DNA of 64,000 nucleotides from a virus. Within the stretch, counting starts at the first letter, position 1, and each line of letters opens with the position of its first letter. The stretch covers positions 58,664 to 122,663 of IMG/VR virus record IMGVR_UViG_3300010398_001198; one strand, written 5' to 3'. The translations under genes and the position numbers were made by a program. Positions 8,956 to 60,696 of the stretch are shown in pieces. A model generated the notes under the pieces. That model did no database searches, was not told the origin of the DNA, and was given only the letters and a program-made list of their open reading frames with translations.

Positions 8956-9672
8956 ATGAGGACGCTTCTATTGGTGACGCTCCTACTCCTGCCGACCCTC
9001 AGTGGGGCCGCCCGGCTCGTGGCCGTCGATCAACCGGTCAGCGTGCGGCTCGAAGTCGCCCAGCCGACGGCCCTGGTCTTTCCGGAGCCCGTGACCTCGC
9101 TGACCACAGGGCTCACCAAGGAGCGCATCAGCGCGGACTTTGACGGCCCCTACGTCTTTGTCATGGCGAAGGATGCCGAGGTGAGTGGGCGGCTCTTTGT
9201 GGTCGGGGCCAGTGGGAAACTGTATCCCCCCGTCACGTTCAAGGTGACAACGCCCGCCGATGATACCGTGACGCTCACCACCGCCCCGCAGAGCGGGCGG
9301 GGTCCGCTCCCCGCATTTGGGGTGCCCTCCTTGCTCCGGGCGCTGCGGCTTCAGAGCCCTGTGCCCGGCCAGGAGATTGTCGAGGCCCCCGCCCCGACGC
9401 TGCCTGATAGTCGGGTCATCCTGGTACACACCAGCGCCGTGCAGGTGCAGGGAACCATTGGCGCCATCTATCTCGTGCGCAATACCCAGGCCACGGCCCT
9501 GCCGCTCGATCTCCGGATCGGGCGTCTCGAGCCAGCGCTGCCGGACACGCTCGATCTGGGCACGTGGGTCTGGCCGCCCCGGCTGACGATTCGGATGGTC
9601 GCGGCAGACACGGAACTGCTTGCGCCGGGCGCGGCTACGCGCATCTATGTCGTGCTGGAAAGGAGACCGTAA
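8956..9672 (+). CDS. traK: TraK-like outer-membrane core protein (VirB9-like)
   Basis: Signal peptide, PTALVFPEPV, LFVVGASGKLY, GAIYLVRN; synteny. Confidence 0.7.
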   Translation: MRTLLLVTLLLLPTLSGAARLVAVDQPVSVRLEVAQPTALVFPEPVTSLTTGLTKERISADFDGPYVFVMAKDAEVSGRLFVVGASGKLYPPVTFKVTTPADDTVTLTTAPQSGRGPLPAFGVPSLLRALRLQSPVPGQEIVEAPAPTLPDSRVILVHTSAVQVQGTIGAIYLVRNTQATALPLDLRIGRLEPALPDTLDLGTWVWPPRLTIRMVAADTELLAPGAATRIYVVLERRP

Positions 9673-10872
9673 GTGGCGCTCAATTGGCAGGTGGCGCTGC
9701 GCACGCAACTGCGCACCCATGTCCTCCGCACCGTCGTCCTTGGTGGCGTAACGGTGGGCATCCTCTGGTGGGGGCTGTCGCCGCCGTCCCGTGTCACCCC
9801 GCCCGCCGTGGCGAAAGTCCAGCCGCTGCCAAGTGCCGGGGTGCAGCGGGCACCGATGGCGGAGGGCTTCCTGACCCTCCAGAACGATCTGCGCGAGCTC
9901 AAAGGATCGGTGGCGGAGGAGAAACAGACGAACCGGGCCTTGCGCGAGGAACTGCGGACGGCGGCGCAAGACCGGAAGGTCGCGGATGAGGCACACAAGC
10001 AGGAACTGCTGCAACTGACCCGGCAGATGCAGGAAACGGAGCGCAAGATGGCGGCCGCCGCCGCGACCAAGCCGGCGCCAGCACTCCCAGCACCACGGCC
10101 CCAGCCTGCACCTCTTGTCACGCTCGCCAAGCCTGCGGTCGAGGATCTCAAGATCACGATCCTGCGCTCCAAAGAGGGGGCGAGCTTTCCCACGAAGACC
10201 GCCCGTCCCGCGCGGACTGACGCCCCCTATCTGCCCGCCGGCTCGCTTGCGGGTGCCCGGCTGATCACCGGCGCCATGGCCTCGACGCGGGAGGCTGGTG
10301 CCATTCCCGTCTTGCTGGCGCTCACGACGCCGTTTGTGCCGCCGTGGCAACTCCAAGGGCCTGGGGCCAATCCGCTCCCCACCGCCATGCCGATCCAGGG
10401 CTGCTTTGTGCTGGGACGCGCCGTCGGGGACCTGGCCAACTCGCGCACGATCATCAAAGGCGAACTCCTCTCCTGCGTCTTACCGGATGGCACCGCGTTT
10501 GAGGCGCCGCTCAAAGCGTATGTGATTGGGCTCGATCATTCCTATGGCCTGGTCTGTGAGGTGACCAAACATGAAAGCGCCGCGATCCTCAAGGCGTTTC
10601 TGACCGGGCTCCTGCAAGAAGCCTCGGCGGCCTTTGGGGTGGCACGCAGCAAGCTCGTGGTGACCTCCGGCAGTGGCCCGCAGCCCTTTTCAGGCGCCCA
10701 GACCTCGCTGCAAAAGATCAGCGATTTTTACTTGCAACAGGCCCAGTTCCTGTTGCCGACGTGTTGGGTGCAGGCCAATACCCCGGCGCGCCTTGTCGTC
10801 GAAGAAGGCGTGCCCCTGGAAGGCGTACCGACCCAGCATGTGTACTTTGCACGTCGTTTAGGCATGCCGTAG
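9673..10872 (+). CDS. traB: TraB/VirB10-like core protein
   Basis: TM + coiled coil + Pro linker + YLPAGS...GCFVLGRAVGDLANSR...LSCV. Confidence 0.85.
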   Translation: MALNWQVALRTQLRTHVLRTVVLGGVTVGILWWGLSPPSRVTPPAVAKVQPLPSAGVQRAPMAEGFLTLQNDLRELKGSVAEEKQTNRALREELRTAAQDRKVADEAHKQELLQLTRQMQETERKMAAAAATKPAPALPAPRPQPAPLVTLAKPAVEDLKITILRSKEGASFPTKTARPARTDAPYLPAGSLAGARLITGAMASTREAGAIPVLLALTTPFVPPWQLQGPGANPLPTAMPIQGCFVLGRAVGDLANSRTIIKGELLSCVLPDGTAFEAPLKAYVIGLDHSYGLVCEVTKHESAAILKAFLTGLLQEASAAFGVARSKLVVTSGSGPQPFSGAQTSLQKISDFYLQQAQFLLPTCWVQANTPARLVVEEGVPLEGVPTQHVYFARRLGMP

Positions 10873-10881
10873 AAGGAGAGC

Positions 10882-11409
10882 GTGATGCCACCTGATGAGT
10901 ATTGTTGGCAGTACATGAGTGCCCTGCTGGGCGTGCTGGTGCTGCTCCTCATCGCCTGCCTCTTTGGCGCCTGTACTGCGGCGCAGCAAGGTCCGCCGAT
11001 TCCTGACGTTCTGCCCCTCACGGCACCGGAGCCCGTGCCCGCCCCGGCTCTGCCTCTACCTCTGCCTGCCGCTGTCCCTGGCCCGGCTGTTGCGCCGCAG
11101 CAGTTCCGGGCCTGGGTCCCGCCGCAGACGACGGCAGCCGGTGACCGCATCGAGGGCCATTGGGCCGTGATTTCCCTGACCCCGCCTCCCGCAGAGACCT
11201 TGGAGCCTGCCAAGACGATCCCGCGTACGCCGCGCCAGGTCATCCCGGCGAAGGTGAGCACGGCACCGATTGCCCGGCCACAACCGGCGGATATGCCCAC
11301 CCCCGTCCTGCCGGGACAGGCGCCACTGTTTGGCACGCCGCCGATGCTGGCCGTGCCCAGTGCTCCCACGCTGGCACCGCCCGTCCTGCTGCCTGGAGGG
11401 ACGCCGTAA
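10882..11409 (+). CDS. traV: TraV-like lipoprotein
   Basis: Lipobox (LFGAC), FRAWVPPQTTAAGDRIEGHW motif. Confidence 0.75.
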   Translation: MMPPDEYCWQYMSALLGVLVLLLIACLFGACTAAQQGPPIPDVLPLTAPEPVPAPALPLPLPAAVPGPAVAPQQFRAWVPPQTTAAGDRIEGHWAVISLTPPPAETLEPAKTIPRTPRQVIPAKVSTAPIARPQPADMPTPVLPGQAPLFGTPPMLAVPSAPTLAPPVLLPGGTP

Positions 11410-13967
11410 TGGCACCGCCGTCGTTTGCCACCCTGTTGCCCCACTCGGTCCTTCTGGATCACGAGCAAGGGATTGTCCTGCTCATGACCTCGCCCAGTCG
11501 CTGGCAGGCCCCGCGGCTGGCCCTGGGGTGTGCGTGGGCCGTCGAGCCGCGCAATATCGAAGTGCTCGATGAGAGCGTCTGCACAGACATTGCGCGCATG
11601 CACGAAAGTCTCCTCAAGAGCTTGCCGCAGGGAGCTGCCCTGCAAACGATCATGACCATTCTGCCTGCCACGGAGGCGCCGGCCTGGACGGCCTTGCGGC
11701 CAACGACGACCGATGCTCCCGCGCAGGCTTTGCTGCTCCAGGAGCAACAGATGGCCCTGGCGGACGGGTTGCCGCACCGCGACGGCACCACATTGGGGCG
11801 GTTGCGCACGGTGCAGACCCTGGTGACCGTGCGTGTCCCCCTGCAGGGACTCCTACCCACGGTGACGCGCCTGGTGCGGAGTGTGCTCGCCTTGCCGCAG
11901 CACCATCGGCGTTCCTTAGGGCAGCGCCTGGCTGCGGAGTTGGAGGAGACGTTGGCGCATCTCGGGTCCTTGCGGCACGGCATTACGGAAACGTTGCGCA
12001 GCGTCGGGCATCGCGTCGAGGCGCTCGACGGGACAGCGCTGGGGCAGGCCCTGGCGCGTGCACTCGATCCCTCTGCATCCGGTGTGCCGGCGATTGACGC
12101 GACCAGTCCCCTCGGGGAGCAGGTCCTGCAACGGCCCCTCACCCAAGTCCCCGGTGGCTTTGGCTATGTCGATGCCACTGGCACGCTGACCGAGGTGGCG
12201 CAGATGCTCTCCCTGCATCATGCCCCGCCGCAGACCTATCCGGGCATCCTGTGTGCGCCCCGGGCGCCCGCCAGTACGAAACCGTTGGCCCTCTGGCAGG
12301 CCTGGGCGGGGCCGCTGACGCTGGTGGTCAATGTGGCCGCCGTCGATAGCCAGGCCGAGAAAAGCCGCTTGCAATGGAAGGCCCGCCTGGCAAGCTGGCA
12401 CGGCAAAGAGCAGGAGAGCGACAGCAGCGATGCGGAGAACGTGACCCTGAAAAAAGAACTCCAGACGCTCTTGCAGACGCTCTTTGTGACCGGTGGGCAG
12501 ATCTATTGGGGCCGCGTGCATGTGGTGCTCTGGGGCGAGCCACGCGCCGTCAAGCGTGGCCTCGACGAGGTCCAACGGTTGGGGCGGAGCCTGGACCTGG
12601 AATTTGCCCCGGAGCCTGGCGCCCTGGGGTCCACCCTCTGGTTGCAGACGCTGCCCCTCGGCTTTGACCCGGCCTATCCCGCAGAGAAGATCCTGCAACG
12701 TGCCCGGCGTATTCCGGGGGACATTCTCTCGGACCTGCTGACCCTCTACGGCGGCTGTCGCGGCACGGCCACGCCCGGGCTGCTCTATCTCAATCAGCGC
12801 GGCGAGACCGCCACCTGGCACCCCTTTGACTCGGCGACGAACCCGCACCTCATTATTACCGGGACGTCCGGCGCGGGCAAAACCTTTACCGTGGCGCACC
12901 TGGTCAATCAGTTAATGCCCCTCGGGGCGACGATGGTCCTTGTGGATCCGCTCACCAATTACCGGCAGCTCTGTGAGCTCTGGCAGGGGGACTATGTGGC
13001 CTTGGGCTTTGAGCGCCCGCCCTGCATCAATCCCTTTGCGGGGCCGCTCGACAGCCAGCATGTCTCCTTTCTCACGGCCATCCTGGCGCAGATGGCCGGG
13101 GGCGGCGGCGATCGGCTGACCTGGGAAGAGTTTAATGTGCTGGGGAACGCCGTGGGCTATTTTGCGCAGCACTGGGACACGCAGCGCGGCGAGCCCACGC
13201 TGGGCGTGTTTCATCAGGAAGTGTTGCAGGAGGGGATCTTTGAAGAGAAAGATCGGCGCTCGCGCATGCTGGGGCGCCAACTGGCCCGCAAGCTCGGGCT
13301 CTTTGTCGGCAACGGCCCCTATGTCCCCTTTCTCAATGGTCCCAACACGTTTCGCGTTCGCCCAGGCTTGACGCTCCTGGAGTTGAATCAATTGGAGAAA
13401 GCGAAGGACCTGCAAGCCATTCTGTTCTTTGCGCAGGTGCACTTTTACACGACCTTTTTCCGCGACCCGCAGCACTTCTATACCCCCAAATACATCCTGT
13501 TTGACGAGGTGTGGGCGTTTGACAAGTTTCCGCAAACGGCGGATGAGGTCGATAAGATCGTCCGCACCTACCGCAACTTTCATACCTGTGCCGGCTTTCT
13601 CTCGCAGGATGTCAAAACATGGGATACCCCGATGGGGCAGGTGATTCGGTCGATTGCCGGGCTGCGGCTCTTTCTCCAGCAAGCCGGGGGCGAGCTCCCG
13701 AAACTCAAGGACCTCTTTGACTTGACCGACGCCGAGATGCAGGTCTTTCGGCAGGTGAAACGGCATGCTGACTGGTCGAGTGGCTACCTCCAGGTGGACG
13801 GCGGCCACGGCGGCGTCCTCCGCCTGATTCCGGATCTGTATACCAAACTCCTCATGGCGCAAGACAGTGCGCTGGCCCAGCGGCGCCGGGCACTCCTCGC
13901 GGAGACCGGTGGCGATCTGGCCCGCACGATGCGCACCTTGCTCCAGGAGGCGCGGGCGCATGCGTGA
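11409..13967 (+). CDS. traC: TraC/VirB4 ATPase
   Basis: HLIITGTSGAGKT Walker A, ILFDEVW Walker B, R.YRNF...FLSQ; 852 aa. Confidence 0.92.
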   Translation: MAPPSFATLLPHSVLLDHEQGIVLLMTSPSRWQAPRLALGCAWAVEPRNIEVLDESVCTDIARMHESLLKSLPQGAALQTIMTILPATEAPAWTALRPTTTDAPAQALLLQEQQMALADGLPHRDGTTLGRLRTVQTLVTVRVPLQGLLPTVTRLVRSVLALPQHHRRSLGQRLAAELEETLAHLGSLRHGITETLRSVGHRVEALDGTALGQALARALDPSASGVPAIDATSPLGEQVLQRPLTQVPGGFGYVDATGTLTEVAQMLSLHHAPPQTYPGILCAPRAPASTKPLALWQAWAGPLTLVVNVAAVDSQAEKSRLQWKARLASWHGKEQESDSSDAENVTLKKELQTLLQTLFVTGGQIYWGRVHVVLWGEPRAVKRGLDEVQRLGRSLDLEFAPEPGALGSTLWLQTLPLGFDPAYPAEKILQRARRIPGDILSDLLTLYGGCRGTATPGLLYLNQRGETATWHPFDSATNPHLIITGTSGAGKTFTVAHLVNQLMPLGATMVLVDPLTNYRQLCELWQGDYVALGFERPPCINPFAGPLDSQHVSFLTAILAQMAGGGGDRLTWEEFNVLGNAVGYFAQHWDTQRGEPTLGVFHQEVLQEGIFEEKDRRSRMLGRQLARKLGLFVGNGPYVPFLNGPNTFRVRPGLTLLELNQLEKAKDLQAILFFAQVHFYTTFFRDPQHFYTPKYILFDEVWAFDKFPQTADEVDKIVRTYRNFHTCAGFLSQDVKTWDTPMGQVIRSIAGLRLFLQQAGGELPKLKDLFDLTDAEMQVFRQVKRHADWSSGYLQVDGGHGGVLRLIPDLYTKLLMAQDSALAQRRRALLAETGGDLARTMRTLLQEARAHA

Positions 13968-18979: not shown

Positions 18980-19202
18980 ACGGCTCTCGATCCATGAGGA
19001 TGTCTACGACCGTCTGACGCAGCTCGCAGCCCGCTATAACTGTTCGGTCACGCGACTGCTCGTCGAACTGGCGGACCTCGGGGAACTCCTGAGCGAGGCC
19101 AGTCGCCTGGAATTTCACCTGCCCGAGCAGACCGGGGGCACCATGCGGGTCTGGCTCCCCGGCACCGGACTCCTCTGGCCGCATCTCGAGCCCCTGCCAT
19201 GA
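18972..19202 (+). CDS. Ribbon-helix-helix DNA-binding protein
   Basis: MSKRLSIHEDVYDRLTQLAARYNCSVTRLL. Confidence 0.6.
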   Translation: MSKRLSIHEDVYDRLTQLAARYNCSVTRLLVELADLGELLSEASRLEFHLPEQTGGTMRVWLPGTGLLWPHLEPLP

Positions 19203-20458
19203 GAATGCTGCTGGTAGGGCTGCTGCTCAGCCTCGCGATGCGGGTGCAGGCCGGGGAGGTGACGCTGGCCTTTGAGTATGAGCTCGACTTGCAATCCTCG
19301 GTCTCGTTTACCTTGCATGTGGTGGGCGCCCATGGGGGGCAGGCTGCCGCCCAGGATCTGCCGGTGGCGCTGTTGCCTCGGTGTCCGACGACGGCCACGT
19401 TTACCCCGCTCGTCGAGACCGTCTGTGTGCAGCTCTGCCTGGAGCCGGATGACTATAGTCTCACGGCGCAGGCGCATCGGGGCGTCGAAGCGAGCCCGTT
19501 CTCCAACATCCTGGACGTGGACCTGCGCGTGACCACGCCCTGTACCCTGCCGCTGCCTCCACCCCCGCCGGACAAGAAGCGCCATGCCTTTCCCATTCCG
19601 CCGCCCCCTCTTCCCATCCCCGTCGCGACGGATACGGTACTGGCCGATCTCCCCAATCCAGGATGCGTGACGTGGAAGATCACGGGTGCCTGCTTCTGCA
19701 ATCCGTTCACCCCCTGCGTGTCGGTCTCCTATTATGAGCCGGCCTATCTCGTCGAGGTGGTGAAGCAGCCCGGCACCACGCTGCTCACACTGGGGCAACC
19801 GCTGCTCGCGGCGGCGCTGAAGGCCGCCGGACTCAGTCTGTGGGGTGGGGGTGGCGCAGCCAATGCGACCGGCGACGGGCAGACGAATAAACATTATGCC
19901 GAGGCGCACGTGTGGCAATTTCCGCAGCTCCTCGGCGGCCCCTGCACGGGCTGTGCGCCGAGTGGGACGTTCACGCTGCACTACGCCAGCGAGCTCGATC
20001 TGCCCACCTGGCGCACCGCCACGGCGGCTCCCACGCCGCTCGACCTGGTGCAGCAGATTGGTGTCTGGGCGCGGCTCTATCCGCGTGGCGGCACGGTCAT
20101 CCATTCCAGCGAAGTCATCGCCAGTGCGGTCACGGCGATCCGGGCCATGGACATTACCCGGCAGCCCATTGGCACCCCGCCCAACGTCGATGTCCATCGC
20201 ATTCTGCAACCGATCCCGGACGATCATACCTGTGCCCAGATGGCGCTGCCCAAGCGTCTGCCCTGCATGACGCCGGGCACACCTCCGCCCCTGTGGGAAA
20301 CCGGGACGACCTCGAAACAGGGAAACTATTTACTGGTCTTTTGGCGTCAACGTACGTGCTGCGTCGAACCTGCACGCGCCACCTGCGGCATCACCGTGCC
20401 GGGTGTGGGTGGCCAAGGAGCCAATCTATGTCTGTTACCACCCTTGCCTACGCCGTAG
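19199..20458 (+). CDS. traU: TraU-family protein with extra N-terminal Fn3-like domain
   Basis: CVTWKITGACFC, VSYYEP, HYASELD..TWR, W..LYPRGG, Cys-rich C-terminus. Confidence 0.8.
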   Translation: MRMLLVGLLLSLAMRVQAGEVTLAFEYELDLQSSVSFTLHVVGAHGGQAAAQDLPVALLPRCPTTATFTPLVETVCVQLCLEPDDYSLTAQAHRGVEASPFSNILDVDLRVTTPCTLPLPPPPPDKKRHAFPIPPPPLPIPVATDTVLADLPNPGCVTWKITGACFCNPFTPCVSVSYYEPAYLVEVVKQPGTTLLTLGQPLLAAALKAAGLSLWGGGGAANATGDGQTNKHYAEAHVWQFPQLLGGPCTGCAPSGTFTLHYASELDLPTWRTATAAPTPLDLVQQIGVWARLYPRGGTVIHSSEVIASAVTAIRAMDITRQPIGTPPNVDVHRILQPIPDDHTCAQMALPKRLPCMTPGTPPPLWETGTTSKQGNYLLVFWRQRTCCVEPARATCGITVPGVGGQGANLCLLPPLPTP

Positions 20459-21453: not shown

Positions 21454-23304
21454 ATGCCTCTCAGTGCGAAATTCCCTGCCCTTGAGACCACGTTGACTGC
21501 GCTCGCGGGTGGGCTGTGTCTGGCGAGTGGCTTCGGGCCTCCAGTCCTCCTGCCTGCTGCAGTCCAGCCCCTGGCGCTGGCGGCAGCGGGGGCCTGGGGT
21601 CTGCGGCGCACGCTCGCCCTCGATCACGCCCTCGCCCGCTGGTGGCGCTGGCATCATGGCCCCTCATGGCGCGTCACCGTCGATGTCCTGTCCCACGTCG
21701 AGGGCTGCCTCCTCGGCAAAGCCTTTCGGCTGGAAGCCCGCCACACGCAACTCCTTGAGGATATTCTGCGCACCGATGGCGCCCTGCCGCTCGACCGTGG
21801 CCCCCGCGGGGGCTATCCCCTGCTGCATGCCGTCGGGGAGGCAGAGGAAGTAGACCAGGTGCTCTCCGATGCCGAACTGGGGCGCCACACGCTGATCACG
21901 GGCACGCCAGGGAGTGGCAAAACCCGCGCCCTCGCCATGATTGCCTCGTCGCTCATGCAACGGCCGGGAGCGGTGGTCATGATCGATCCCAAAGGCGACC
22001 GCGAGCTCATGCTGCACTGTGCGGCGGAAGCCAAGCGCCACGGCAAACCCTGGGCCGTGCTTACCCCGGCCTTTCCGCAGCTCTCGGCCACCATGAACGT
22101 CCTGGATACCTGTCGTACCCCCGCCGAAGTGGCCATGCGCGTGCATGCCCTGATGCCGAGTGCCGGCGGCCGCAGCAATGAGCCGTTCTTTGAACAGTAT
22201 GCCCTGGCGTTGATCGAACGCATTGCCGATATCCAGCAACGCTTGGGGCAGCAGCATGGGCATCCGGTCGGGAATCCCTGGACGCTTGCGGACCTCTATC
22301 GCCCTGCAGTGCTCCGGCTGGATCTGCTCATGCTCGTTGATACCTATCTCGAGGCCATCGGTATCCCCAACACCCCGTTCAAGGGACGGAAGGGGAGCCG
22401 CTTCGACCATCGCTTTGCCCATTACCGGGCCACAGGATTGCGGGACATGACGATCGATGCGCTCCTGGATGACCTGGAGAAACCGCGGGACCATTTCACC
22501 AAAGTAACGGCGACCCTGATTCCTACCTTTAGGGGCGTGGTGGGGGAACCGCTGGAACGCCTGCTCTCCACGGTGCCGGCCGACCTCACCTGGACGCGCA
22601 TCGCGGAGGACGGGATGGTGGTGTATGTGGCGCTGGCTTCGATGCTGTTAGGGGATGATGCCAACCGCATTGGCCGCGTCATCCTGCAAGACCTCATCGG
22701 CTTTCTCGGCCAACGGTATGCGTACGCAGATGCGGCACAGGCTTCGCCCATTACCGTGCTCGTGGACGAGCTCTATGAGGTGCTCTATCCGCAGTTTACG
22801 ACCGCCCTGGCCATGTCCCGTGGCGCCCGGTGTCGGTGGATTCTGGCGCAGCAGTCCCTCGCCCATACGGCGGCGAAACTTGGACGCGATACCGCCCGCG
22901 TGCTGCTCGATAACTGTACGACGCGCCTCTATTTCCAACTCGCCGACAAGGAGACTGCCGAAGATGTCTCGGAGAGCTTGGGGACCTGTACGATTGACGT
23001 GCCGGCGCGGCGGCCTGACGTGACCAATGCCTACGGCGGGAGTGGCGGATTGGCCGGTGCGGCCCGCAAGGGCTTCAAGGCAGAACGGGTGCCACTCATC
23101 CGGCCCGAGTGGCTCTATGCGCTCCCCATTGGGGAGTATGTGGGCCGGATTCAAGGGGTGCCCGTCAAAGGGCGCATCCCGTTGCTCACCCTGCCGGATG
23201 AGGCAGCACGGACCCAGTTGGGCTTGCACGATCCCTGGCAGGCCCTCAACCCGGCAGCCCCACGGCTGCTGCCAATGCCAACGACAGAGGAGATCGCACC
23301 ATGA
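21454..23304 (+). CDS. traD: Type IV coupling protein TraD/VirD4
   Basis: N-terminal TMs, HTLITGTPGSGKT, VVMIDPKGD, VLVDE, SRGA, QSL...NCTT. Confidence 0.92.
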   Translation: MPLSAKFPALETTLTALAGGLCLASGFGPPVLLPAAVQPLALAAAGAWGLRRTLALDHALARWWRWHHGPSWRVTVDVLSHVEGCLLGKAFRLEARHTQLLEDILRTDGALPLDRGPRGGYPLLHAVGEAEEVDQVLSDAELGRHTLITGTPGSGKTRALAMIASSLMQRPGAVVMIDPKGDRELMLHCAAEAKRHGKPWAVLTPAFPQLSATMNVLDTCRTPAEVAMRVHALMPSAGGRSNEPFFEQYALALIERIADIQQRLGQQHGHPVGNPWTLADLYRPAVLRLDLLMLVDTYLEAIGIPNTPFKGRKGSRFDHRFAHYRATGLRDMTIDALLDDLEKPRDHFTKVTATLIPTFRGVVGEPLERLLSTVPADLTWTRIAEDGMVVYVALASMLLGDDANRIGRVILQDLIGFLGQRYAYADAAQASPITVLVDELYEVLYPQFTTALAMSRGARCRWILAQQSLAHTAAKLGRDTARVLLDNCTTRLYFQLADKETAEDVSESLGTCTIDVPARRPDVTNAYGGSGGLAGAARKGFKAERVPLIRPEWLYALPIGEYVGRIQGVPVKGRIPLLTLPDEAARTQLGLHDPWQALNPAAPRLLPMPTTEEIAP

Positions 23305-23681
23305 GACGACTACTCATCCTGGGCCTGAGTGTGGCCCTCACGGGCTGTGTCGCCACAGGCACGAAAGTCAGCCAGGACCGGCTGACCCACTTTGCCGAAG
23401 GGCAGACGCTCTGTACCGACATGGTGGCCGAGCTCGGGCCACCGACGCAGGAGACCCTGCGCAGTGACAAGACCCGCCAACTCACCTATAGCTACAGTCA
23501 GATGCAGGTGAATCCCCTGTCCTTTATCCCGGTGGCCGGCGCGTTTATCCGGAGCGGGAGCCAGGAGAACACGGCGGTGCTGATCGAATGTGATGCGCGG
23601 GGGGTGCTGGTCACCTACGAGTTGCAGCAGGGGCAGAGCACGACCGGGACCGGGTTCGTGAGTGGGGGGCGGCAAAAGTAG
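23301..23681 (+). CDS. Lipoprotein (SmpA/BamE-like), possible entry/surface exclusion factor
   Basis: Lipobox LTGC, ELGPP, TYSY..FIP; exclusion role inferred from position only. Confidence 0.6.
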   Translation: MRRLLILGLSVALTGCVATGTKVSQDRLTHFAEGQTLCTDMVAELGPPTQETLRSDKTRQLTYSYSQMQVNPLSFIPVAGAFIRSGSQENTAVLIECDARGVLVTYELQQGQSTTGTGFVSGGRQK

Positions 23682-23800
23682 CCGCCCGCTGGGTAGTGAC
23701 GGCGGAGCGAGCGGACGCGGCTTTCGCCCTTGCCTCACAGGGGGTTCGAGGGCGGGTGTCGCGGCCTGGCGCAAGTGACAGACCGGAAGCGAGGTGGGGA

Positions 23801-24712
23801 ATGCCGACCTTAGAGGGGCAGTTGGATGCGCTCACGCGGCGCAACCGGGATGGCTCGCACAAGACGCAGGGGGATCGGCGGCGTATGTTGCATTTGTTTG
23901 CGCGGCAACTGCATGAGTTAGGGTATCGGCAGTTGCGGGCGCAGGATCTGAAGGGGCGGCATCGGAACAAGTTGCTGGCATTGTGGGAGACGCAAGGGAT
24001 TACGGCGAAGGTGCGAGCGAATCGCATGGCGGTGCTGAACTGGTGGTATGAGAAGATTGGGAAGCCGGAGCTGATGGCGCGGCGCAATGCGGCGTATGGG
24101 ATCGCACGGCCAGAGCCGGTCGTCGTCTCGCGGGCGAAGGTGCTCAGTGCGGCGCAGCTCCTGCAGGTCGAGGATGCGTATGTGCAGATGAGTTTACGGC
24201 TGATCCAGGCCTTTGGGCTGCGGCGCAAGGAGAGTCTGATGCTGTGTCCCCATGCGGCAGATGGGGGCGCAGTCCTGCATATCATGTTCAATTGGGCGAA
24301 GAATGGGCGGGCGCGGCAGATACCGATCGTGCAGCCGGGCCAGCGAGAGGTCTTAGAGGTGGCCAAGGCGCTGGTCCGAGAGCCGGCCGCATCACTCGTG
24401 CCGGTGGACCGGACCTTCATCGAGCAAGAGAAGCGGTTTGATGCATGGGTACACAAGATTGGATTGGGCGGTGCGCATGGGTTGCGGCATGCCTGGGCAC
24501 AGGCGCGCTATGGGGTCCTCAGTGGGATGGCCTGTCCCTTGCTGGGGGGACCGTTGTGGTCCGCGATGACCCGTGACGAGCGCCAGCAGGATCGCCAGGC
24601 GCGGCAGGAGTTGACACGGGAATTGGGGCATGAGCGCGTGAGTCAAGTGGCCACCTATATCGGCACGAATCGGCCTGTACGTCCTCGCAGCGTCTCACCA
24701 TCAAGTGATTAG
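23801..24712 (+). CDS. Tyrosine recombinase (Integrase_1-type), candidate relaxase
   Basis: Catalytic set FGLRRKES, WAKNGR, HGLRH, LGHER, ATYIG; N-terminus GSHKTQGDRRRML. Confidence 0.85.
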   Translation: MPTLEGQLDALTRRNRDGSHKTQGDRRRMLHLFARQLHELGYRQLRAQDLKGRHRNKLLALWETQGITAKVRANRMAVLNWWYEKIGKPELMARRNAAYGIARPEPVVVSRAKVLSAAQLLQVEDAYVQMSLRLIQAFGLRRKESLMLCPHAADGGAVLHIMFNWAKNGRARQIPIVQPGQREVLEVAKALVREPAASLVPVDRTFIEQEKRFDAWVHKIGLGGAHGLRHAWAQARYGVLSGMACPLLGGPLWSAMTRDERQQDRQARQELTRELGHERVSQVATYIGTNRPVRPRSVSPSSD

Positions 24713-24746
24713 AGTCAGTGGGGCATGCATCTGGGTTCCTCCAGGG

Positions 24747-24880
24747 CATGGGAGTATCTCCGGACTCCCCCCATGAGACGCGATGCTGTCACCGTAGTAA
24801 GCAGCACCAGACGACCGAATCTATAGAAACAGCACAGTCAAAGAGCGGCCTGAGACGAGGTGCTGTTCACCCGTCTCAGG
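24747..24880. promoter_or_regulatory. Inverted-repeat cluster, candidate oriT/recombination site
   Basis: CATGGGAGT/ACTCCCCCCATG (24747-24775) and CCTGAGACG-A-GGTG-CTGTT-CACC-CGTCTCAGG (24849-24880) in a gene-free gap. Confidence 0.35.
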
Positions 24881-25482
24881 GTCCATCGGGACTTAGGGTG
24901 TCAGCGCAGGGCCGGCACCGTAGAGCTGGGACAGGAGCGCCTTGAACTGCGGCCAGGAGCCGAGTCCAGGCGGCGGAGGTGCAGGAGGCACCGCCATGGG
25001 GGGAGCGGCTGTGGGCGACGGCGAGCGGCGGGGGCTCCAGGACCGCGGAGCGAGACGCCAGCCAGCGGGCCGGACACAGCGAGAATGGGGCTCACCATAG
25101 AACACGGGCGATGTCTCGAACATACGCAACCTCCTTGGGCTGGTGCGCGGGCGGCAGACGACTGGCTGTGTGGTCATTGCGAGCCGCGCCTGGCGGGTGC
25201 ATAACCCAACCAGACGCAGCACAGGCAAGACGACCTGAGCCACGCAACGTCGTATCGCAGCGCATCAGCAGGGAAAAGGGCTGTGACGGGGGTAGAGAGG
25301 GTGTCACAGCAGGAGCCCAACGGTGTGGGCAGGCGTACCAGGAGTGGTACGGAGGACCGGCCCAAAGAGCCGGGGTGCTAGGCGCATGCCTAACAGATAC
25401 GCACAGTGTAGCCTGGGCAGGCGAGGGAACGCAAGCAAAATGTTCCCCCTGGAGACCGGCACGAGGGGGCCGCAGCGGGCGC

Positions 25483-25791
25483 TTACTTGCCGACGATGGC
25501 CTGATGGCTCTCTTCCGCGATCTTGATGAGCGCCACGCGCAAGGCGGCCTCATAGTCCCCGCCGGCGAGCCGCGTCTGTTGATAGGTCAGCAGGAACATG
25601 GCGAGGTGGTCGCGATAGCGGTCGGGCAGGTAGGGCAGGACGGTGCCCTGTTGCAGGGCGGTGACGGCCTGCCGAATGTCCGGTTCTGGAGCAAGGGGGG
25701 CATCTGCCTGGACGGGCCAGAGCAGCGTCAGGAGGCAGAGCCCGGTGAGGACAGGACGTAGAGCGGCGAATCGTACGAGAGTCGTGATCAT
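25483..25791 (-). CDS. Exported hypothetical protein
   Basis: Signal peptide ending VQA. Confidence 0.6.
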   Translation of the reverse strand: MITTLVRFAALRPVLTGLCLLTLLWPVQADAPLAPEPDIRQAVTALQQGTVLPYLPDRYRDHLAMFLLTYQQTRLAGGDYEAALRVALIKIAEESHQAIVGK

Positions 25792-25827
25792 AGGTGCTTT
25801 CCTTGCATGGTGGAAGAGAAGGCCCCG

Positions 25828-26049
25828 CTAGGGGGCCTCGTGCAGCGCCTCACGGTCGGCCTGGCGCTGCGTCAGCACGCGGTGCAGGTCGTCCACCGTG
25901 GTGGAGGGCATGACCCAGAGCACCTCAGCGGCAACGTGCAGCTCGATACTGCGGCGGACGGCCTTGGCCACGCGGACGGCCTCGGCGAAGACGGCCTCGA
26001 GGGGCGCGTCGGGGTGGGCCTTCAGGAGCAGAAAGGTCGGGTGCGTCAT
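25828..26049 (-). CDS. Hypothetical protein
   Basis: RBS AAGGAG, 73 aa. Confidence 0.55.
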   Translation of the reverse strand: MTHPTFLLLKAHPDAPLEAVFAEAVRVAKAVRRSIELHVAAEVLWVMPSTTVDDLHRVLTQRQADREALHEAP

Positions 26050-26270
26050 GGGGTCTCCTTCTTTGGTCGCTGTCTTTGCCATATCCACCCTCCGTGCTCA
26101 GACTCAGGTTCGATGGTCGTGACGAGGGCGAGCGCATCCTCAAAGAGACGGTCAAAGAACGCCCTGGGTTGTCCCGACGCCCCTGGATAGAGGGCAACAT
26201 AGCGTTTGGCAATGTCGAGCAATGCCTCAGCGGCCTGGGCGAGCCGTGCGTCACGGTTGTCTGGGGTCAT
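26046..26270 (-). CDS. Hypothetical protein
   Basis: RBS, coupled ORF. Confidence 0.55.
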   Translation of the reverse strand: MTPDNRDARLAQAAEALLDIAKRYVALYPGASGQPRAFFDRLFEDALALVTTIEPESEHGGWIWQRQRPKKETP

Positions 26271-26511
26271 CGTCGGTCTCCTTTCTGCCCGTGCGGGCGG
26301 GCGTGGTCTTGCGCCAGAGCGTCCGCCAGGGCGTCAGCATGGCATCCGAGGGCAGCAGCGTCACGGTGCCATCGTCGTGTTCCTCGACCAGGTACTCATC
26401 ATAGCCCTTGCCATAGTCGCGGCGATGGCGCTCGTAGGGAATGGGGGCGTAGCCGTCGAGATGGCGGCGGGGCCAGCGTCCGTAGGGACTGTTGGGGATC
26501 GTGAGGCTCAT
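26251..26511 (-). CDS. Hypothetical protein
   Basis: RBS AAGGAG, 86 aa. Confidence 0.55.
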   Translation of the reverse strand: MSLTIPNSPYGRWPRRHLDGYAPIPYERHRRDYGKGYDEYLVEEHDDGTVTLLPSDAMLTPWRTLWRKTTPARTGRKETDDDPRQP

Positions 26512-26523
26512 CGGTTCTCCTTG

Positions 26524-27039
26524 CTAGCTGTTGGCACGGAGATACAGCGCAAGACCATCATGCCGGCTGGGGTCGAGCGCCAGAATCTCATCGTAGACAT
26601 CAATGACCTCACGGGCAAACTGCCGCGCGGCCGTGCGCAGGCTGGCGATCCCGGAGTGACTACAGAATAGGGCCACGTCGCCGCGGATCTGTCCGGCAAA
26701 CTCCTCGGCCGTGCCAAAGAGATAGCTGACGTGCGGCGGCTTCTGGGCCAGCAGGACGGTGAGAAACGCCGTGGCCCAGATGGGGTTGGCCTCGATGCAG
26801 TAGACGCGGCGCGCATACTGCCCCAGGTGGAGAGCCAGGAGCCCCAGGCCTCCACCGATCTCCACCACGGTCTTGCCCTCCACCCGTGGGGCGAGATGGG
26901 CCGCGACGAGGGCGGCCGTCTCATCATCGGTGATGGTCAGGATACCGGCGGACGTGACCTGGTGGCGCTGGGCATAGGCGCGCAGCAGGTCTGAGCCCTC
27001 AAACGTGGCATAGAGGGTGTCAAGTAACTGGGCATTCAT
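26524..27039 (-). CDS. Class I SAM-dependent methyltransferase
   Basis: VVEIGGGLGLL motif I, VYCIEANP motif II. Confidence 0.8.
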   Translation of the reverse strand: MNAQLLDTLYATFEGSDLLRAYAQRHQVTSAGILTITDDETAALVAAHLAPRVEGKTVVEIGGGLGLLALHLGQYARRVYCIEANPIWATAFLTVLLAQKPPHVSYLFGTAEEFAGQIRGDVALFCSHSGIASLRTAARQFAREVIDVYDEILALDPSRHDGLALYLRANS

Positions 27040-27058
27040 AGGCATTCCTCCTTTCATG

Positions 27059-27313
27059 CTAGACGCGCCACAGCGGCGCCCGCAGCAGCCCATCGGCGTC
27101 CAGCCCCCGGGCCTCCTGCGTGCGGTCGAGGGCTGCGGCGGTGTCGATGGTCAGTTGCCCATTATTAAAGCCGAGCACAGGATATTGGTGCTCGGCTTTG
27201 TAGGCATCGTCCGGGGGCATCGCCAGGATGCCGACGACCATGATGAGGCGCCGGCCCTCTTTCTCGCCCACATCACGGGTAAACACTTGGCCGGTAATAT
27301 ACGGGGTCATCAA
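27059..27313 (-). CDS. Hypothetical protein
   Basis: RBS AAGGAG, 84 aa. Confidence 0.55.
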   Translation of the reverse strand: MMTPYITGQVFTRDVGEKEGRRLIMVVGILAMPPDDAYKAEHQYPVLGFNNGQLTIDTAAALDRTQEARGLDADGLLRAPLWRV

Positions 27314-27322
27314 GGCTCCTTG

Positions 27323-27898
27323 CTACGGCCTGGGCGGTTCTGCCGCCAGCGCCTTATAGATCGTCCTTCGCGAACACCCCAGCGTCTGGGCAATCGCCGT
27401 GATCTTCTCTCCCCCGCGTCGGAGCGCCTGCGCCTGCCGTTGTTTGTCCGGCGACAGCACCGGACGCCGTCCGCCCTTATGCCCCCGTGCCCGCGCCGCT
27501 TCAAGCCCGGCAATGACGCGCTCGCGGATCATCTCCCGTTCGAACTCGGCAAAGGCACCAAGCAGATCGAAGAACAGTTTGCCTGCCGTGCTCTGGAGGT
27601 CGAGGGCGGCGCCCAGGCCGTCCAGGATGTGCAGCCCAATCGCCTCAGTGCGGAAGTGGGCGGCGAGCTCTTGCAGATGGAGCAGGGACCGGGCCAGGCG
27701 GTCCAGCTTCCAGACGACGAGCGTATCGCCGCTGCGCAGCACCTGCAAACACTGCGCCAGCCCCGGACGTGCGGTGCGGGCACCGGAGGCTTTGTCGCCG
27801 TAGAGGTAGCGTTCGGGGACGCCAGCGGCCAGCAGGGCATCCCGTTGGAGGTCATACTTCTGGTCACGCGTCGAGACCCGCCAATAGCCGATAAGCAT
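27323..27898 (-). CDS. Small serine recombinase (resolvase/invertase) with C-terminal HTH
   Basis: IGYWRVSTRDQ, DKASG, GDTLVVWKLDRLARS, GL..ARARG..GGR. Confidence 0.95.
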   Translation of the reverse strand: MLIGYWRVSTRDQKYDLQRDALLAAGVPERYLYGDKASGARTARPGLAQCLQVLRSGDTLVVWKLDRLARSLLHLQELAAHFRTEAIGLHILDGLGAALDLQSTAGKLFFDLLGAFAEFEREMIRERVIAGLEAARARGHKGGRRPVLSPDKQRQAQALRRGGEKITAIAQTLGCSRRTIYKALAAEPPRP

Positions 27899-28005
27899 AC
27901 GATATGCCTCGCCTGCCAGCCTGTGGTATGCTAGCAGGTGCTCGTGTTGAATCCTGTGTGGTGCGAGCGAGCAACGCTCCCACGCTGCTCGCTCATCCTC
28001 ATCCT

Positions 28006-28203
28006 CTAGTGTTCGTGCCGTCCTTGGTCGTGATGCTCCTCGATCTTGTCTAACAGGCCGGGATGCTCCCGCTCAAAGGCCCGGCGCTCCGCCGCATCCT
28101 TCTCCTGCTGGGCACAGCGGCAATGTGTGGCACACTGTTCGCAATCGACACAGACGGGTTCCGCATTACACCGAGGGCATTCTTGCCAGAGTTGTCCACG
28201 CAT
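28006..28203 (-). CDS. Cys-rich small protein
   Basis: CPRC..VCVDCEQCATHCRC. Confidence 0.55.
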   Translation of the reverse strand: MRGQLWQECPRCNAEPVCVDCEQCATHCRCAQQEKDAAERRAFEREHPGLLDKIEEHHDQGRHEH

Positions 28204-28321
28204 AGGGTGCCTTTCCGTGGTTTGAGTTCCTCTCCCAATACGCACATATTGCTGCACACATTTGCCTGCCATCCAGGGGTTGTTCCTCCTTTCCCGTCCC
28301 CGTGGTCCTCAAACAGGTGTT

Positions 28322-28834
28322 TCATCCCATCCCCTCGAGTCGCCCCGCCTTGAGGTCCTCCCGCAAGGCCATCCAGAGCTTGCCGAGCAGGTTCTGGCCA
28401 TCATGGTTCGGTCCCCATCCCCAGGTCGCGTCTCGCCAGGAGTCCTCGACGATCTCGCGGTCCCCCGTCTCCAGCAGCTTCCGCCGCACGTACTCATGCT
28501 GTCGGAGCTTGGCGATCAGGATGGCCCGCATCACGGCCATCCGTCGCTCGTGCCAGGTCGAGGCGACGAGTCCTGCATGGTCCTGCGCCACGCGAAACGC
28601 CGCATGCGCCGAGCGGGCGACCCGGATCTGGCATTGCAGATCACAGGACGCACAATAGATATGGCAGGCATCATCCACGCCAGGATGGCGGAATTTTTCA
28701 TAGTGATAGACATGCTCACTGGTATCAAAATCCAGCCCCCGCCAGTGCAGCCGAAAGGGCGCGAAGTTGGACAAACAGTAGAACTCGTCGGGGTAGAAAT
28801 ACACCCGGCTCTCGGTATCCAGTCGATAGGGCAT
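28322..28834 (-). CDS. NADAR (YbiA/DUF1768) family protein
   Basis: LSNF, SEH.Y...KF, M......K..Q, LLETG...IVE....D..WG....GQNLLGKL.M.LR. Confidence 0.92.
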   Translation of the reverse strand: MPYRLDTESRVYFYPDEFYCLSNFAPFRLHWRGLDFDTSEHVYHYEKFRHPGVDDACHIYCASCDLQCQIRVARSAHAAFRVAQDHAGLVASTWHERRMAVMRAILIAKLRQHEYVRRKLLETGDREIVEDSWRDATWGWGPNHDGQNLLGKLWMALREDLKAGRLEGMG

Positions 28835-30313: not shown

Positions 30314-31165
30314 TTATTCGATCTCTTCCACCGTGAGCATGTCGATGTTCAAGGCCCTTCGCAAGGCCCGTCCCGTCGCCCGCGTGGCCGCGATGCGAAT
30401 GAAGTGTTGTTTCATGGGGGCTGCCTGGACATTGGCCGGCGTCGCATCCCCGATATCCGTAAAGCTCCGGCCATCGCCGAACCGCGCAACGCATTGGCAC
30501 ACGGCGACCTCTGGCGTCACTGTGACAATCGTAGTCGCCAGGTCGACCAGACCGCGCTCATGGGCCAACGCCACGAGACCGTTCACGTACACGTAGTACT
30601 TCCCCTGAATAAGCCGCACATACTGCTTGGGTACGTCGGCGAGCCGGAGCGGCGACGGGTCAGCGGCGGTCTCCTCTTCGGGAGGGCCGTCCTGCGCCGA
30701 TGGTATCTCCGCGACGGGGGGGGCAGAGACCTCTACCCCCTGCTCCAGTCGCTCCAATTCCGCTGACAGATCCTTCGGGGGCATCTGCAACTGCTCCGGC
30801 GTGAGATGGGAGGCCCGGTGCGCCAGGACCACGGCAATCCGGTGCTTGCACAACCCGAGAGGCGCCTGGTGCTGCTGAAAATCCTCACACTCACAGGTTT
30901 TCCCTTGAACTTGGTAGCACCCGCTGCCGGTCTCGGATGCCACCTCATAGACGCCATCACCCTTGTAGACCACTTTGCTGCGATCGAGGGCGAGTGCCGT
31001 GGCCGGTGAGATGCGTGAGGTCAGCGCCTTGTCCGTACTGCGGAGGGAGGCCACCGCCGAGGAAAGGCGCACAGCCTTCTTCCAGAGTGCGTCATCAAAC
31101 GCGACGGTCCCCTGGCCTTCACGGGGAGCTTGGGTCGTGCCATTCGTCTGTGTTACACTTGCCAT
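30314..31165 (-). CDS. SWIM zinc finger fused to Rad52/Sak-like single-strand annealing domain
   Basis: CECEDF...LCKHRIAV (SWIM); IQGK.YV..NGL..LAH...F.D.GDATP....IRIAATRA.GRALR. Confidence 0.65.
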   Translation of the reverse strand: MASVTQTNGTTQAPREGQGTVAFDDALWKKAVRLSSAVASLRSTDKALTSRISPATALALDRSKVVYKGDGVYEVASETGSGCYQVQGKTCECEDFQQHQAPLGLCKHRIAVVLAHRASHLTPEQLQMPPKDLSAELERLEQGVEVSAPPVAEIPSAQDGPPEEETAADPSPLRLADVPKQYVRLIQGKYYVYVNGLVALAHERGLVDLATTIVTVTPEVAVCQCVARFGDGRSFTDIGDATPANVQAAPMKQHFIRIAATRATGRALRRALNIDMLTVEEIE

Positions 31166-39986: not shown

Positions 39987-42900
39987 TTAATCCGCCGCCG
40001 CCAGGTCCTCCTGGGCTTGCTGCTGGCGGGTAATCGTGGTGACAATCGCCTCCGCCACCGACACGCGGGCCGTCGTCTCCCGCAAGGCACTCTCGGCGTG
40101 GTGCTGCTGCGTGGCCCGCAGGTCGGCAATCTGCTGCACGAGTTCGGGCTGCTGGCCCACGTCGCCGCCCTCGGCCATGGTGTCTTCGAGGGCATCGCGC
40201 AGCCAGGTGAGGTCTTTGAGGTAGGCTTTGAGCGTAAAGGGCAGGGCGGTCTGCGCCTCGGCGTTACGCCCTTCTTGCTCGACCTGGGCCAGGAGGTGCT
40301 GGGCCTGCGCCACCCGTACCGGGACATCCGCTTCGAGGTCGCGCAGGGCGGACAGGACGCCGGCGCCGGGATGCGTGCGCCGTCCTAAGGCCACGCGGCG
40401 GGTGGCCTGGCCTTCGAGCCAGACTTCCGCGCCGAACAGGCCACTCACGGCGAGCCCGAAGCGCAGGCCCTTGTACGTGCCGAGGGCCACGGTCGTACTC
40501 ACTTTGAGGCCCAGGTACGGCTCGACGTAGGGATCGAGCAGGCGCCGGGCCTCGGCGGGGGTGAGGGGAAAGACGGCGCTCGGGGCGTACTGGCCGTCGA
40601 GCGTGAGCACCCCGGCGTGCTGCCAGCGTGCCAGCGCGGCCAGGTCGGCCTGGAGCTGGTGCAGGTAGCGCGTCTGGCGGGCCACGTCGTCCGGCAGGCT
40701 TTTCAGCCGCCGCCGGGCCTGAAACACCTGATCCTTATGATGGTTGGCGAGGATCGTTACCCGGCGCACCTCGGCGCTCGTCTCGGCCAGGACGCGCATA
40801 GCGGGATGGCCGGACACGAGCGCTTTGAGTTGGGCATAGGTCAGTTCCTCTTCGCCCACATCTGCCGCCGTGCGGGCGGTGACGGCGCCGGAGAGAAACT
40901 GGTGCAGGAAATGGGCCTTGCCCTCGAGCGCCTGCCACACCACGGCTTCCACGGACCCTTCGGTGCCGTAGACATAGATATACACGGGCTTCCCCCAGTC
41001 GCGGTGCAGATTGCCCTGGCGCAGCATGCGGCCATGGCGCTGTTCGATATCACTGGGCCGATATGGGACATCGACGTGATGGATGGCCACCAGCCGTTCC
41101 TGCACGTTGACACCGGTGCCCAACTTCTCCGTCGAGCCCAGGAGCACGCGGACTTCGCCGTGCTGCACCTGCGTACAGAGACGCAGGCGGGCCTGATCGG
41201 TTTTCGCCTGATCGATGCGGGCAATCTGGTGGCGGGGTTTCCCCCGTGCGACGAGCCCCTCGATCACCTGATCGTAGAAACAAAAGCCCCAGGCGGTCGG
41301 TTTCACGCCGATGTCGCAGAAGATGAGCTGCGTCGCCCGGTCGGCCTCGCCATCGTCCCAGTGCTGCACCACCCGGTCACACAGGGCATGGAGCTTGGAC
41401 TCGGGCCAGTCGTCCGCCGTGGGCTCCAACAGGCGAGCATCGACCGCCATCTTCTTGCCGTCGCCGAGGATGGTGACGGGTTCGCCACTGTGGCGCCCCG
41501 CCTGGCCGCTCCGCACGCGCTCGTAGCGCGCGACGAGGTCTTCTTGCATCCGGCGCTGCGTGGGCGACATCGGACACAGGACGGGCTGCGCCGCCCCGCC
41601 GGCGAGCGGTGGGACAGGCAGGTGCAGCTGCTCGGCGGTCTTATACGCCAGGAATTGCCCGAGCATCTGCTGCAAGTCGGGCAGGTTGGTAAAGTTGGCG
41701 AAGCGCGAGCGCGGACGGAGCGTCTGGCCATCGGGGCCGAACTCCATTTTCGTCACGACTTCGCCAAACGTCGCCGCCCAGGCATCGAAGTGCCCAATCC
41801 CGCTCTCCTCCAAGGCGTCGGGGGTGAGCATCTTCTGGATGGAGTAGAGTTCGCCCATGGTGTTGGTCACGGGGGTCGCACTGGCGAAGGTACAGCCGTG
41901 GCCGGGACGCTGGGCGTGGAGGTATTGGGTTTTCAGGTAGAGGTCGAAGGCGCGCCCCGAGCCCTCACTGGTGACCCCCGCCACGTACTTCATTTTCGTG
42001 GGGGTCTCCAAGTTCTTCGCAAAGTGCGCTTCATCGACGACGAGGTAATCAATGCCCAGCTCATCGAACACCAGCCCGTCATCTTTCGGGATGGCGTGGA
42101 GCAAGTCGTGCAGGCGGGCCTGATACACACTCTTCTGCCGCTCTAAGGCCTTCCTGATGTTATGCTGGTCGCGCCCATGCTCGCGCTCATGGTCGACGAG
42201 CAGGGCGGTAAACTCCGCGATGAGGGTGTCCAGGGCCTGGCGCTGCACGCCAACCGACAGTGCCAGATGCCCAAAGGCGGTGTGCGTGGTGATGATGCCA
42301 TCCCACAGCCCACTGCTCATCTTGGCCGCCATGAGCTTGCGGCGCTCTTTGGTAAAGTCCTCGGCCCCGGCAATGAGATAGCGGGCCGTGGGATACAGCT
42401 TCACGGCCATGCGCCCGACTTGTTCGAGCGTGCTGTTTTTGACGACAAACAGGGGCTTGCGAATGAGCCCCGCCTGTTTCATCTTCATACATCCGGCCAG
42501 GTAGGTATAGGTCTTGCCGCCGCCGACGGCATGCCCCAGGTAGGTATTGCCCATCGTGAGCATCTGCCAGACGCCGGCCTTCTGATCCGTGGTGAGGGTA
42601 ATGAGCGGGGTCATGCCCGGAAAGGTGAGATGGTCGCCGTTCACCTCTCTGGCCCGGTGCGTGTTCCGCAGGGCATTATAGAGCCCCACGCAGCGCTCAC
42701 TGCGGGTGCCGTCTGCCCACAGCCACTGCTTAAAGTGCGCCTTGAGGGCGGCCTGTTTCTCCTGCGCCACCAGGGTTTCTGCCTGATTGATCACCTGATG
42801 CTCGGTGCCATCGGGCCAGGTGATGGTATCGTGCACGACGGGCGCTTGCAGGTTGAGGGCCTGCTGCAGCAGGGTGATGCCGGAGACCCGCTGCGAGCCG

Positions 42901-44951: not shown

Positions 44952-45044
44952 AGTGCTGCTACCTCCGTGAGTAAATGCGCAACATGAGGGCACGGGGGAA
45001 GGCCGGGTGGATGTAACGAGCACCCACCCGGCTGGTGTGTCCGG

Positions 45045-60694: not shown

Positions 60695-60696
60695 CG

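Follow-up and report, generated by a model that had tools for sequence, protein, structure and literature searches.

A candidate MpsA-type (MOB_M) relaxase encoded at the end of the tra operon of a tailed-phage-like virus record

Introduction

The relaxase class MOB_M, named in a 2026 preprint, comprises the tyrosine-recombinase-like proteins TcpM, MobK and MpsA; its genes are abundant in chromosomes, where 96% lie beside an integrase, and occur alone or with type G mating-pair formation (MPF_G) systems (10.64898/2026.01.13.699239). MpsA of the genomic island SGI1 carries its tyrosine at position 319 (Y319) and is accompanied by MpsB, a protein of 98 amino acids (aa) (PMC6414798), and the family PF12835 has been used by the Burrus laboratory as the signature for MpsA-like DNA-processing (DTR) proteins (PMC10484663). 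Here we describe a 303-aa protein of this kind that is encoded behind the conjugation genes in positions 58,664 to 122,663 of the IMG/VR virus record IMGVR_UViG_3300010398_001198. This stretch of 64,000 nucleotides (nt), hereafter the window, is the right-hand part of a linear record of 122,663 bp. Relaxases that resemble recombinases are already published as a class, and what is new here is one more member; the unusual part is its carrier, which resembles a tailed phage.

Membership in the MpsA family

The gene under study is the last of the tra operon and lies 497 nt past traD, after a gene for a small lipoprotein-like protein:

23801-24712, plus strand: MpsA-family (MOB_M-like) tyrosine-recombinase-type protein, candidate relaxase, 303 aa

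Its start has been placed at the ATG at 23801 and not at the GTG at 23696, because homologues begin at the same methionine. Two Pfam domains were detected, the N-terminal SAM-like PF12834 (52.9 bits) and PF12835 (Integrase_1; 29.1 bits against a cut-off of 23), and the protein has no match in NCBIfam or among the PHROG families. The catalytic set R141, K167, H226, R229, H277 and Y286 is invariant in alignments of 14 and of 62 homologues, with R141 and R142 in GLRRxE, K167 in W-x-K-G-G and the central pair as H226-x-x-R229, and these motifs align with those of IntI4. An AlphaFold2 model (pLDDT 93.9, pTM 0.79) consists of a helical N-terminal domain and a catalytic domain, and Foldseek aligned IntI4, Tn1549 Int, lambda Int, XerH and Cre over both domains and about 300 columns, so that at the level of the model the two-domain fold of the tyrosine recombinase superfamily is confirmed. 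The original prediction, made from the window alone, had described a tyrosine recombinase with an intact R-K-H-R-H-Y set after traD and a lipoprotein gene, and the domains, alignments and fold bear this out. More than 1,400 homologues were found, mostly of 287-288 aa; the closest (P0002 and P0003) are 72-74% identical to the window protein and were not recovered when viral and metagenome contigs were scanned with the protein or with a three-sequence alignment as the query.

A weak match in a phage collection led to a 3.1-kb record with Salmonella Kentucky as its host (L087), in which positions 1528-2493 encode a 321-aa open reading frame (ORF) that ends in ...NSYLG, with a tyrosine at position 319, and is followed by an ORF of 99 aa. 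Because Tyr319 and the following ORF fit published MpsA and MpsB, the longer ORF is taken as MpsA of SGI1. The recovered MpsA matches PF12835 at 43.5 bits, and hhalign matched it to a profile built from the family of the window protein at a probability of 99.3% (E 8.7e-21, 255 columns), including the family-specific motifs up to the C-terminal ELGHxR...YLG. Similarly, tblastn with MpsA as the query found a sole match in the virus record, the recombinase gene (E 9e-13), and matches in 137 of the 151 loci of the family. A quick tree placed MpsA on a very long branch within the family and not outside it, and the window protein fell into one supported clade with the protein of a second viral record (L157). 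No link to the named E. coli MOB_M proteins was obtained, as a family gene from Klebsiella had no blastn match in E. coli genomes. Taken together, sequence comparison gives good support for placing the window protein in the family of MpsA.

Other relaxases and integrases in the record

Models for the relaxase classes MOB_F, MOB_P, MOB_Q, MOB_V and MOB_H (PF08751, PF03432, PF03389, PF01076 and PF07514) had no match in a six-frame search of all 122,663 bp, in which models for MOB_C, MOB_T and MOB_B were not included, while positive controls for these searches gave matches. The earlier observation that the window has no HUH or HD relaxase therefore extends, for these five models, to the whole record, whose completeness was estimated by CheckV at 77%; outside the window as well, no canonical relaxase was found by them. 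The integrase family PF00589 had no six-frame match at E 0.01 and PF12835 occurs once. The recombinase is the sole tyrosine recombinase and the sole relaxase candidate in the record.

Genomic contexts of the family

In the second viral record (L157/G001; 98.9 kb, 88% complete), two tra genes and traU are followed by a small gene, traD and the lipoprotein gene; after 2.1 kb of unassigned sequence come the recombinase gene and, farther on, a serine resolvase gene. Its proteins are 34-41% identical to those of the window. No match to PF07514, PF08751, PF03432 or PF00589 was found in it. Co-occurrence of the recombinase gene with relaxase-less type IV secretion system (T4SS) loci had been suggested as a check, and this record agrees with it, as the order traU-traD-lipoprotein-recombinase is kept and the three relaxase families searched for there are absent. 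Directly after its recombinase gene, where the window has a gap of 770 nt, the second record has a gene for an HNH endonuclease (L157:10900-11259).

The 4.9-kb Vibrio plasmid pSIO1 (L001, NC_006860.1) and the 8.1-kb Psychrobacter plasmid pA53P3 (L004, NZ_MN657117.1) both carry a family gene, a small ORF and a type IV coupling protein (T4CP) gene, and hold little besides this module and a replication gene, which is annotated on pA53P3 only. No known relaxase is present on either, and both have been typed as non-mobilizable by MOB-suite; it is probable that both can be mobilized and that their relaxase has gone unrecognised. The recombinase-small ORF-T4CP module recurs in six metagenome contigs, and the family gene of six loci is followed at 3-6 kb by a TraD-like gene. 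Among the PLSDB plasmids with a homologue, 120 of 200 have been typed as non-mobilizable. A universal downstream partner was considered and rejected, as the small downstream ORFs form unrelated clusters (AlpA/Xis-like and others).

In chromosomes, a true PF00589 integrase was found within 6 kb of the family gene in at least 38 of 80 loci, in agreement with the preprint (10.64898/2026.01.13.699239), and family members in islands have a separate P4-type integrase alongside. Because a genuine PF00589 integrase adjoins it, the family member is not the integrase of these chromosomal islands.

The family cis element and the gap after the gene

Many family members are preceded by a conserved element. 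In 57 of 106 loci, TGGTGTCC stands within a hairpin core, (C)GGGAGTGGTGTCCC(G), that lies 85-180 nt upstream of the gene start and whose closing pair covaries; a hairpin with arms that covary between lineages stands before this core, and a box, CAGAAACACTTACC, follows it after 57-75 nt (for example L012:5321-5407 and L110:9889-9981, among L007-L158). In the SGI1 record, GGGGGTAGAGCCCCC lies exactly at the overlap of two small upstream ORFs (L087:1100-1190) and CACTTACC lies about 70 nt before mpsA (L087:1455-1470), and the 125-bp minimal origin of transfer (oriT) of SGI1 has been placed at the overlap of such small ORFs (PMC6414798). Because GGGGGTAGAGCCCCC sits at this overlap and CACTTACC before mpsA, the family element very likely corresponds, as judged by sequence, to the mapped SGI1 oriT and its neighbourhood.

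The non-coding features on either side of the window gene are as follows:

23682-23800: spacer of 119 nt 5' of the recombinase gene, the usual place of the family's conserved cis element
24713-25482: non-coding gap, flanked by the 3' ends of the tra operon and of a block of minus-strand genes; candidate for an oriT, a small-RNA region or both
24747-24775: inverted repeat 1, with the core GGGAGT-8 nt-ACTCCC at 24750-24769
24849-24880: inverted repeat 2, a perfect 9-bp stem with a 14-nt loop, extendable to 13 pairs

Neither the family core hairpin nor the AACACTTACC box was found in the 119-nt spacer, the SGI1-like core hairpin is absent from the downstream non-coding region, and the CACTTACC box is absent from the whole window. 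The best nhmmer match of the family element in the window had an E value of 0.11 and lay away from the gene. A covariance model of the element, which as a control finds it before the gene in the plasmids L160, L004 and L003, had no match in 23600-25500 or elsewhere in the window, nor near the recombinase gene of L157.

The gap itself had been described as about 770 nt without convincing genes, and this holds, as no codon-position GC pattern was detected in it, its longest ORF has no Pfam match and there is no credible Rfam match. It has no match to a promoter or terminator consensus and no similarity to L157. Its first 188 nt (24713-24900) fold better than 200 of 200 shuffles (z = -2.84). The core of inverted repeat 1 begins 38 nt past the recombinase stop codon, with AGAAACAGCAC 75 nt farther on, and has its GGGAGT 5' arm in common with the family core GGGAGTGGTGTCCC; it is one of three such hairpins in the window and lies within a branched fold. 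Inverted repeat 2, which may be the terminator of the tra operon, is of a type with about 20 hairpins in the window (32 stem/loop entries versus 8.6 in shuffles). Both inverted repeats of the original prediction thus exist, but are nothing out of the ordinary in this window. Scans of viral contigs for exact matches to the two hairpin sequences gave 57 matches and one match, none beside recombinase or tra relatives; the single match, to the sequence of inverted repeat 2, likewise has no such relative near it.

Several further resemblances were considered. A loose echo of the core, GGGGGT-12-CCCCC, lies 222 nt before the recombinase gene of L157, and the SGI1 core is the only hairpin of this pattern in the SGI1 record; the GGGAGT-type pattern carries little weight, because it was defined after seeing the cases. 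The words CCTGAGAC and CGTCTC are common to inverted repeat 2 and to hairpins of SGI1 and a marine lineage, with the order of the arms reversed, and have been treated as chance. Hairpins of the GGGRGT...CYCCC type were also observed in an intergenic spacer at 905-929, where GGGGGGGTGGTGGCCCCACCCCCCC is flanked by AATTA/TTAATT, and inside an ORF at 30719-30740 (minus strand), where the 10-mer GGGGGTAGAG is common to the SGI1 oriT core. The former contains GGGGGTGGTGGCCCC, which is near a variant of the family core, and was set aside, being 23 kb from the gene and having the look of an intergenic terminator-type palindrome.

The 770-nt gap is the best local candidate for an oriT, although we would put its chances somewhat short of even; the oriT may instead lie in the 119-nt spacer and the adjoining 3' part of the lipoprotein gene, or in some other place. 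The original prediction, that the protein nicks an oriT in the gap, has good support in its enzyme half, from homology and context, and not in its oriT half, as the gap has no family element and is only a plausible location.

The tra operon and neighbouring genes

The plus-strand operon encodes divergent conjugation proteins of the F/G type in the order traL...traC...traU-traD-lipoprotein-recombinase, including a TIGR03755-like protein. Its main features, besides the recombinase gene, are:

9673-10872, plus strand: TraB/TrbI-like protein of the tra operon
11160-13967, plus strand: TraC/VirB4 of the tra operon
19199-20458, plus strand: TIGR03756-like protein (NCBIfam), the TraU homologue
21454-23304, plus strand: traD, type IV coupling protein of 616 aa (Pfam TrwB_AAD_bind, TraG-D_C and T4SS-DNA_transf)
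23301-23681, plus strand: small lipoprotein-like gene of 126 aa, between traD and the recombinase gene

The best NCBIfam match of TraD is the SXT/TOL-type TraD model TIGR03743 (E 6.8e-71, under the model cut-off), and TraD is 39% identical to its L157 homologue. As bait, traD alone returned no contigs, and a traD alignment returned the contig of L157 only. The lipoprotein-like protein has no Pfam or NCBIfam match and matches phrog_3135, a PHROG family of function unknown. A homologue follows traD in L157 (L157:7522-7896; 36% identity) and another adjoins a family recombinase gene in contig L089 (914-1162, minus strand), so that the gene has been observed beside a family recombinase gene in three independent contigs (window, L157 and L089), once convergently. 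Because of this adjacency, a functional tie of the lipoprotein-like gene to the transfer module is suggested.

Facing the operon across the gap is a block of small minus-strand genes:

25483-28834, minus strand: block of small genes transcribed toward the gap (ORFs, GC signal at third codon positions); possible leading region
27323-27898, minus strand: serine resolvase (Pfam Resolvase and HTH_7), kept in L157
28322-28834, minus strand: NADAR (Pfam)

The block also holds genes for proteins without assignment and a methyltransferase-like gene (weak Pfam RrnaAD match). Phage genes in the same window encode a large terminase, a D5/P4-type primase and a 1678-aa helicase protein. The large terminase gene (60457-63474, plus strand) encodes LAGLIDADG_3 at residues 431-486 and Terminase_6C at residues 796-950 (Pfam), and the LAGLIDADG-type insert is probably an intein or a homing endonuclease domain. 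The 1678-aa protein (39987-45023, minus strand) has a superfamily 2 helicase core (ResIII, Helicase_C) at residues 826-1337 and about 800 N-terminal residues without a domain assignment; it could be a DarB-like or conjugation-associated helicase. In addition, the coding-strand GC skew is strongly positive across the recombinase gene and the sequence on either side of it, in the window (+0.13 to +0.18 in 23001-26000) as in L157 (+0.18 to +0.20 in 9001-11000), in contrast to the neighbouring tra genes.

Proposed function and alternatives

We consider it likely, from homology and context, that 23801-24712 encodes a relaxase of the MpsA type (MOB_M), in which the fold and active site of a recombinase are used for conjugative DNA processing and not for integration. 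The analysis shows that the protein is a member of the family, has an intact active site and the recombinase fold, and is encoded in conserved synteny, in a record in which the other relaxase families tested are absent. Nicking and strand transfer, as well as where oriT lies and what TraD does, are inferred. The protein would bind a hairpin-forming site on the element, and Tyr286 would cut one strand, which would leave a covalent 3'-phosphotyrosyl link, as in tyrosine recombinases; the adjacent TraD would then hand the nucleoprotein complex to the F/G-like T4SS. The N-terminal SAM-like domain PF12834 probably performs the DNA binding for which SGI1 also needs the separate MpsB. No MpsB homologue was found in the record (best tblastn E 0.044) or in the 151 family loci, and the fused domain may replace such a partner. 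With a plus-strand nick within the gap and 5' to 3' transfer, the recipient would receive the minus-strand block ahead of the other genes, the transferred strand being the template of that block, and the tra operon at the end. A similar arrangement is usual for the leading regions of F- and I-type plasmids, and by its orientation the block at 25483-28834 is a possible leading region.

Several points weigh against this reading. For MpsA neither nicking nor the location of the nick has ever been demonstrated (PMC6414798); direct nicking through the catalytic tyrosine is on record only for MobK, a distant protein. Transfer of SGI1 rises by 3-5 logs with the helper relaxase TraI (PMC6414798, PMC13635750), so that an MpsA-like protein alone may be inefficient. 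Further, the family hairpin core and the AACACTTACC box are absent near the window gene, where pattern searches stayed at chance level, and some plasmids carry a MobQ or MobA/MobL relaxase in addition to a family member, which means that the family is not always the sole relaxase. The relaxase search covered five classes, and because the record is linear and incomplete, its missing part could encode a canonical relaxase or an integrase.

The first alternative is a conventional site-specific recombinase of a phage or phage-plasmid, either a Cre/Xer-like dimer resolvase that acts on a palindrome such as GGGAGT-8-ACTCCC in the gap, or the integrase of the element. The full two-domain fold and active site would suit such an enzyme, as would a palindrome with two 6-bp arms 38 nt past the gene and a record that has phage and P4-type replication genes and no other tyrosine recombinase. 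However, the family groups with MpsA and not with integrases, and the protein has neither a PF00589 match nor a PHROG match; its relatives have true integrases as neighbours in islands and T4CP genes on tiny plasmids, L157 keeps the gene at the operon's end, and a serine recombinase 2.6 kb away could handle resolution. We therefore regard a conventional recombinase as unlikely.

In the second alternative, the protein would be needed as an accessory factor that binds oriT, and cleavage or efficient transfer would depend on a second enzyme not visible here, encoded in the missing part of the genome, present as an unrecognised domain (for instance the N-terminal part of the 1678-aa helicase protein) or supplied by a helper element. 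This alternative draws on the 3-5 log fall of MpsAB mobilisation of SGI1 without TraI, on the incompleteness of the record and on the first 800 unassigned residues of the helicase protein, but is quite improbable given that MobK nicks oriT in vitro by its catalytic tyrosine (PMC8152469), that two independent phage-like records are without MOB_F, MOB_P and MOB_H, and that the active site is strictly conserved. A relaxase of the MpsA type is the reading that we prefer.

Significance

The MpsA-type family is labelled "integrase" by MOB-suite, older CONJscan and PGAP, and as a result elements like that of the window are scored as relaxase-less or non-mobilizable. Read as an MpsA-type relaxase, the protein gives the phage-borne T4SS a plausible complete set of T4SS, coupling protein and relaxase, which makes the idea of a conjugative phage testable. 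A bolder proposal, which we regard as doubtful, is that the soil tailed-phage lineage of the window record and IMGVR_UViG_3300036826_000567 carries a self-sufficient conjugation module, with a tyrosine-recombinase-type relaxase as its only DNA-processing enzyme and with a cis site that has diverged and moved relative to all other family members; the phage genome could then spread from cell to cell as well as by particles. Apart from phages, the upstream hairpin and box of the family look usable as an oriT/leader marker for MOB_M elements, and would be a cheap means of predicting oriT in many genomic islands and small plasmids.

Comparison with known systems

Among the closest described systems is MpsA of SGI1, together with MpsB, oriT_SGI1 and the small RNA sgm-sRNA. 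Both proteins belong to the catalytic family PF12835, the profile match covers almost the full length, and the motifs GLRxxE, TKGGRxRxxPI, HGxRHxYAQxRY and ELGHxR...YLG, with the C-terminal nucleophile tyrosine, are common to both; MpsA, too, works with a TraD-type coupling protein. However, identity is only about 28%, the N-terminal PF12834 is clear in the window protein, and SGI1 has the MpsB partner that the record lacks. The non-coding region lies upstream in SGI1 and downstream in the window, which is without the family cis element. Further, SGI1 borrows its T4SS and T4CP and profits from a helper relaxase of the MOB_H class, whereas the window element has a full T4SS and a T4CP of its own.

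At the level of the whole element, the MOB_M proteins of integrative and conjugative elements (ICEs) with MPF_G systems, such as SGI-4, are a parallel, since there a recombinase-like protein is the only relaxase of a self-transmissible element. The window has T4SS components of the G/F type (TIGR03756, TIGR03755 and SXT/TOL-type TraD), and chromosomal relatives of its protein adjoin an integrase, as reported for MOB_M (10.64898/2026.01.13.699239). Unlike these ICEs, the carrier in the window is a tailed-phage-like record in which no integrase was detected.

Compared by description, TcpM of pCW3 (Clostridium perfringens) is likewise a recombinase-like relaxase of a self-transmissible plasmid, and MobK of pIGRK (Klebsiella pneumoniae) is a recombinase-like relaxase that nicks its own oriT in vitro via its catalytic tyrosine (PMC8152469). 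TcpM and MobK are without a core-binding domain, which the window protein has, and have no significant similarity to MpsA (PMC8152469). Cre, XerH, IntI4 and lambda Int are the best structural matches (Foldseek E 7e-7 to 7e-4) and have the same catalytic residues; however, they are only 12-17% identical to the window protein, a sequence search against solved structures reached only E 0.79, and the context of the window gene is conjugation and not integration or resolution.

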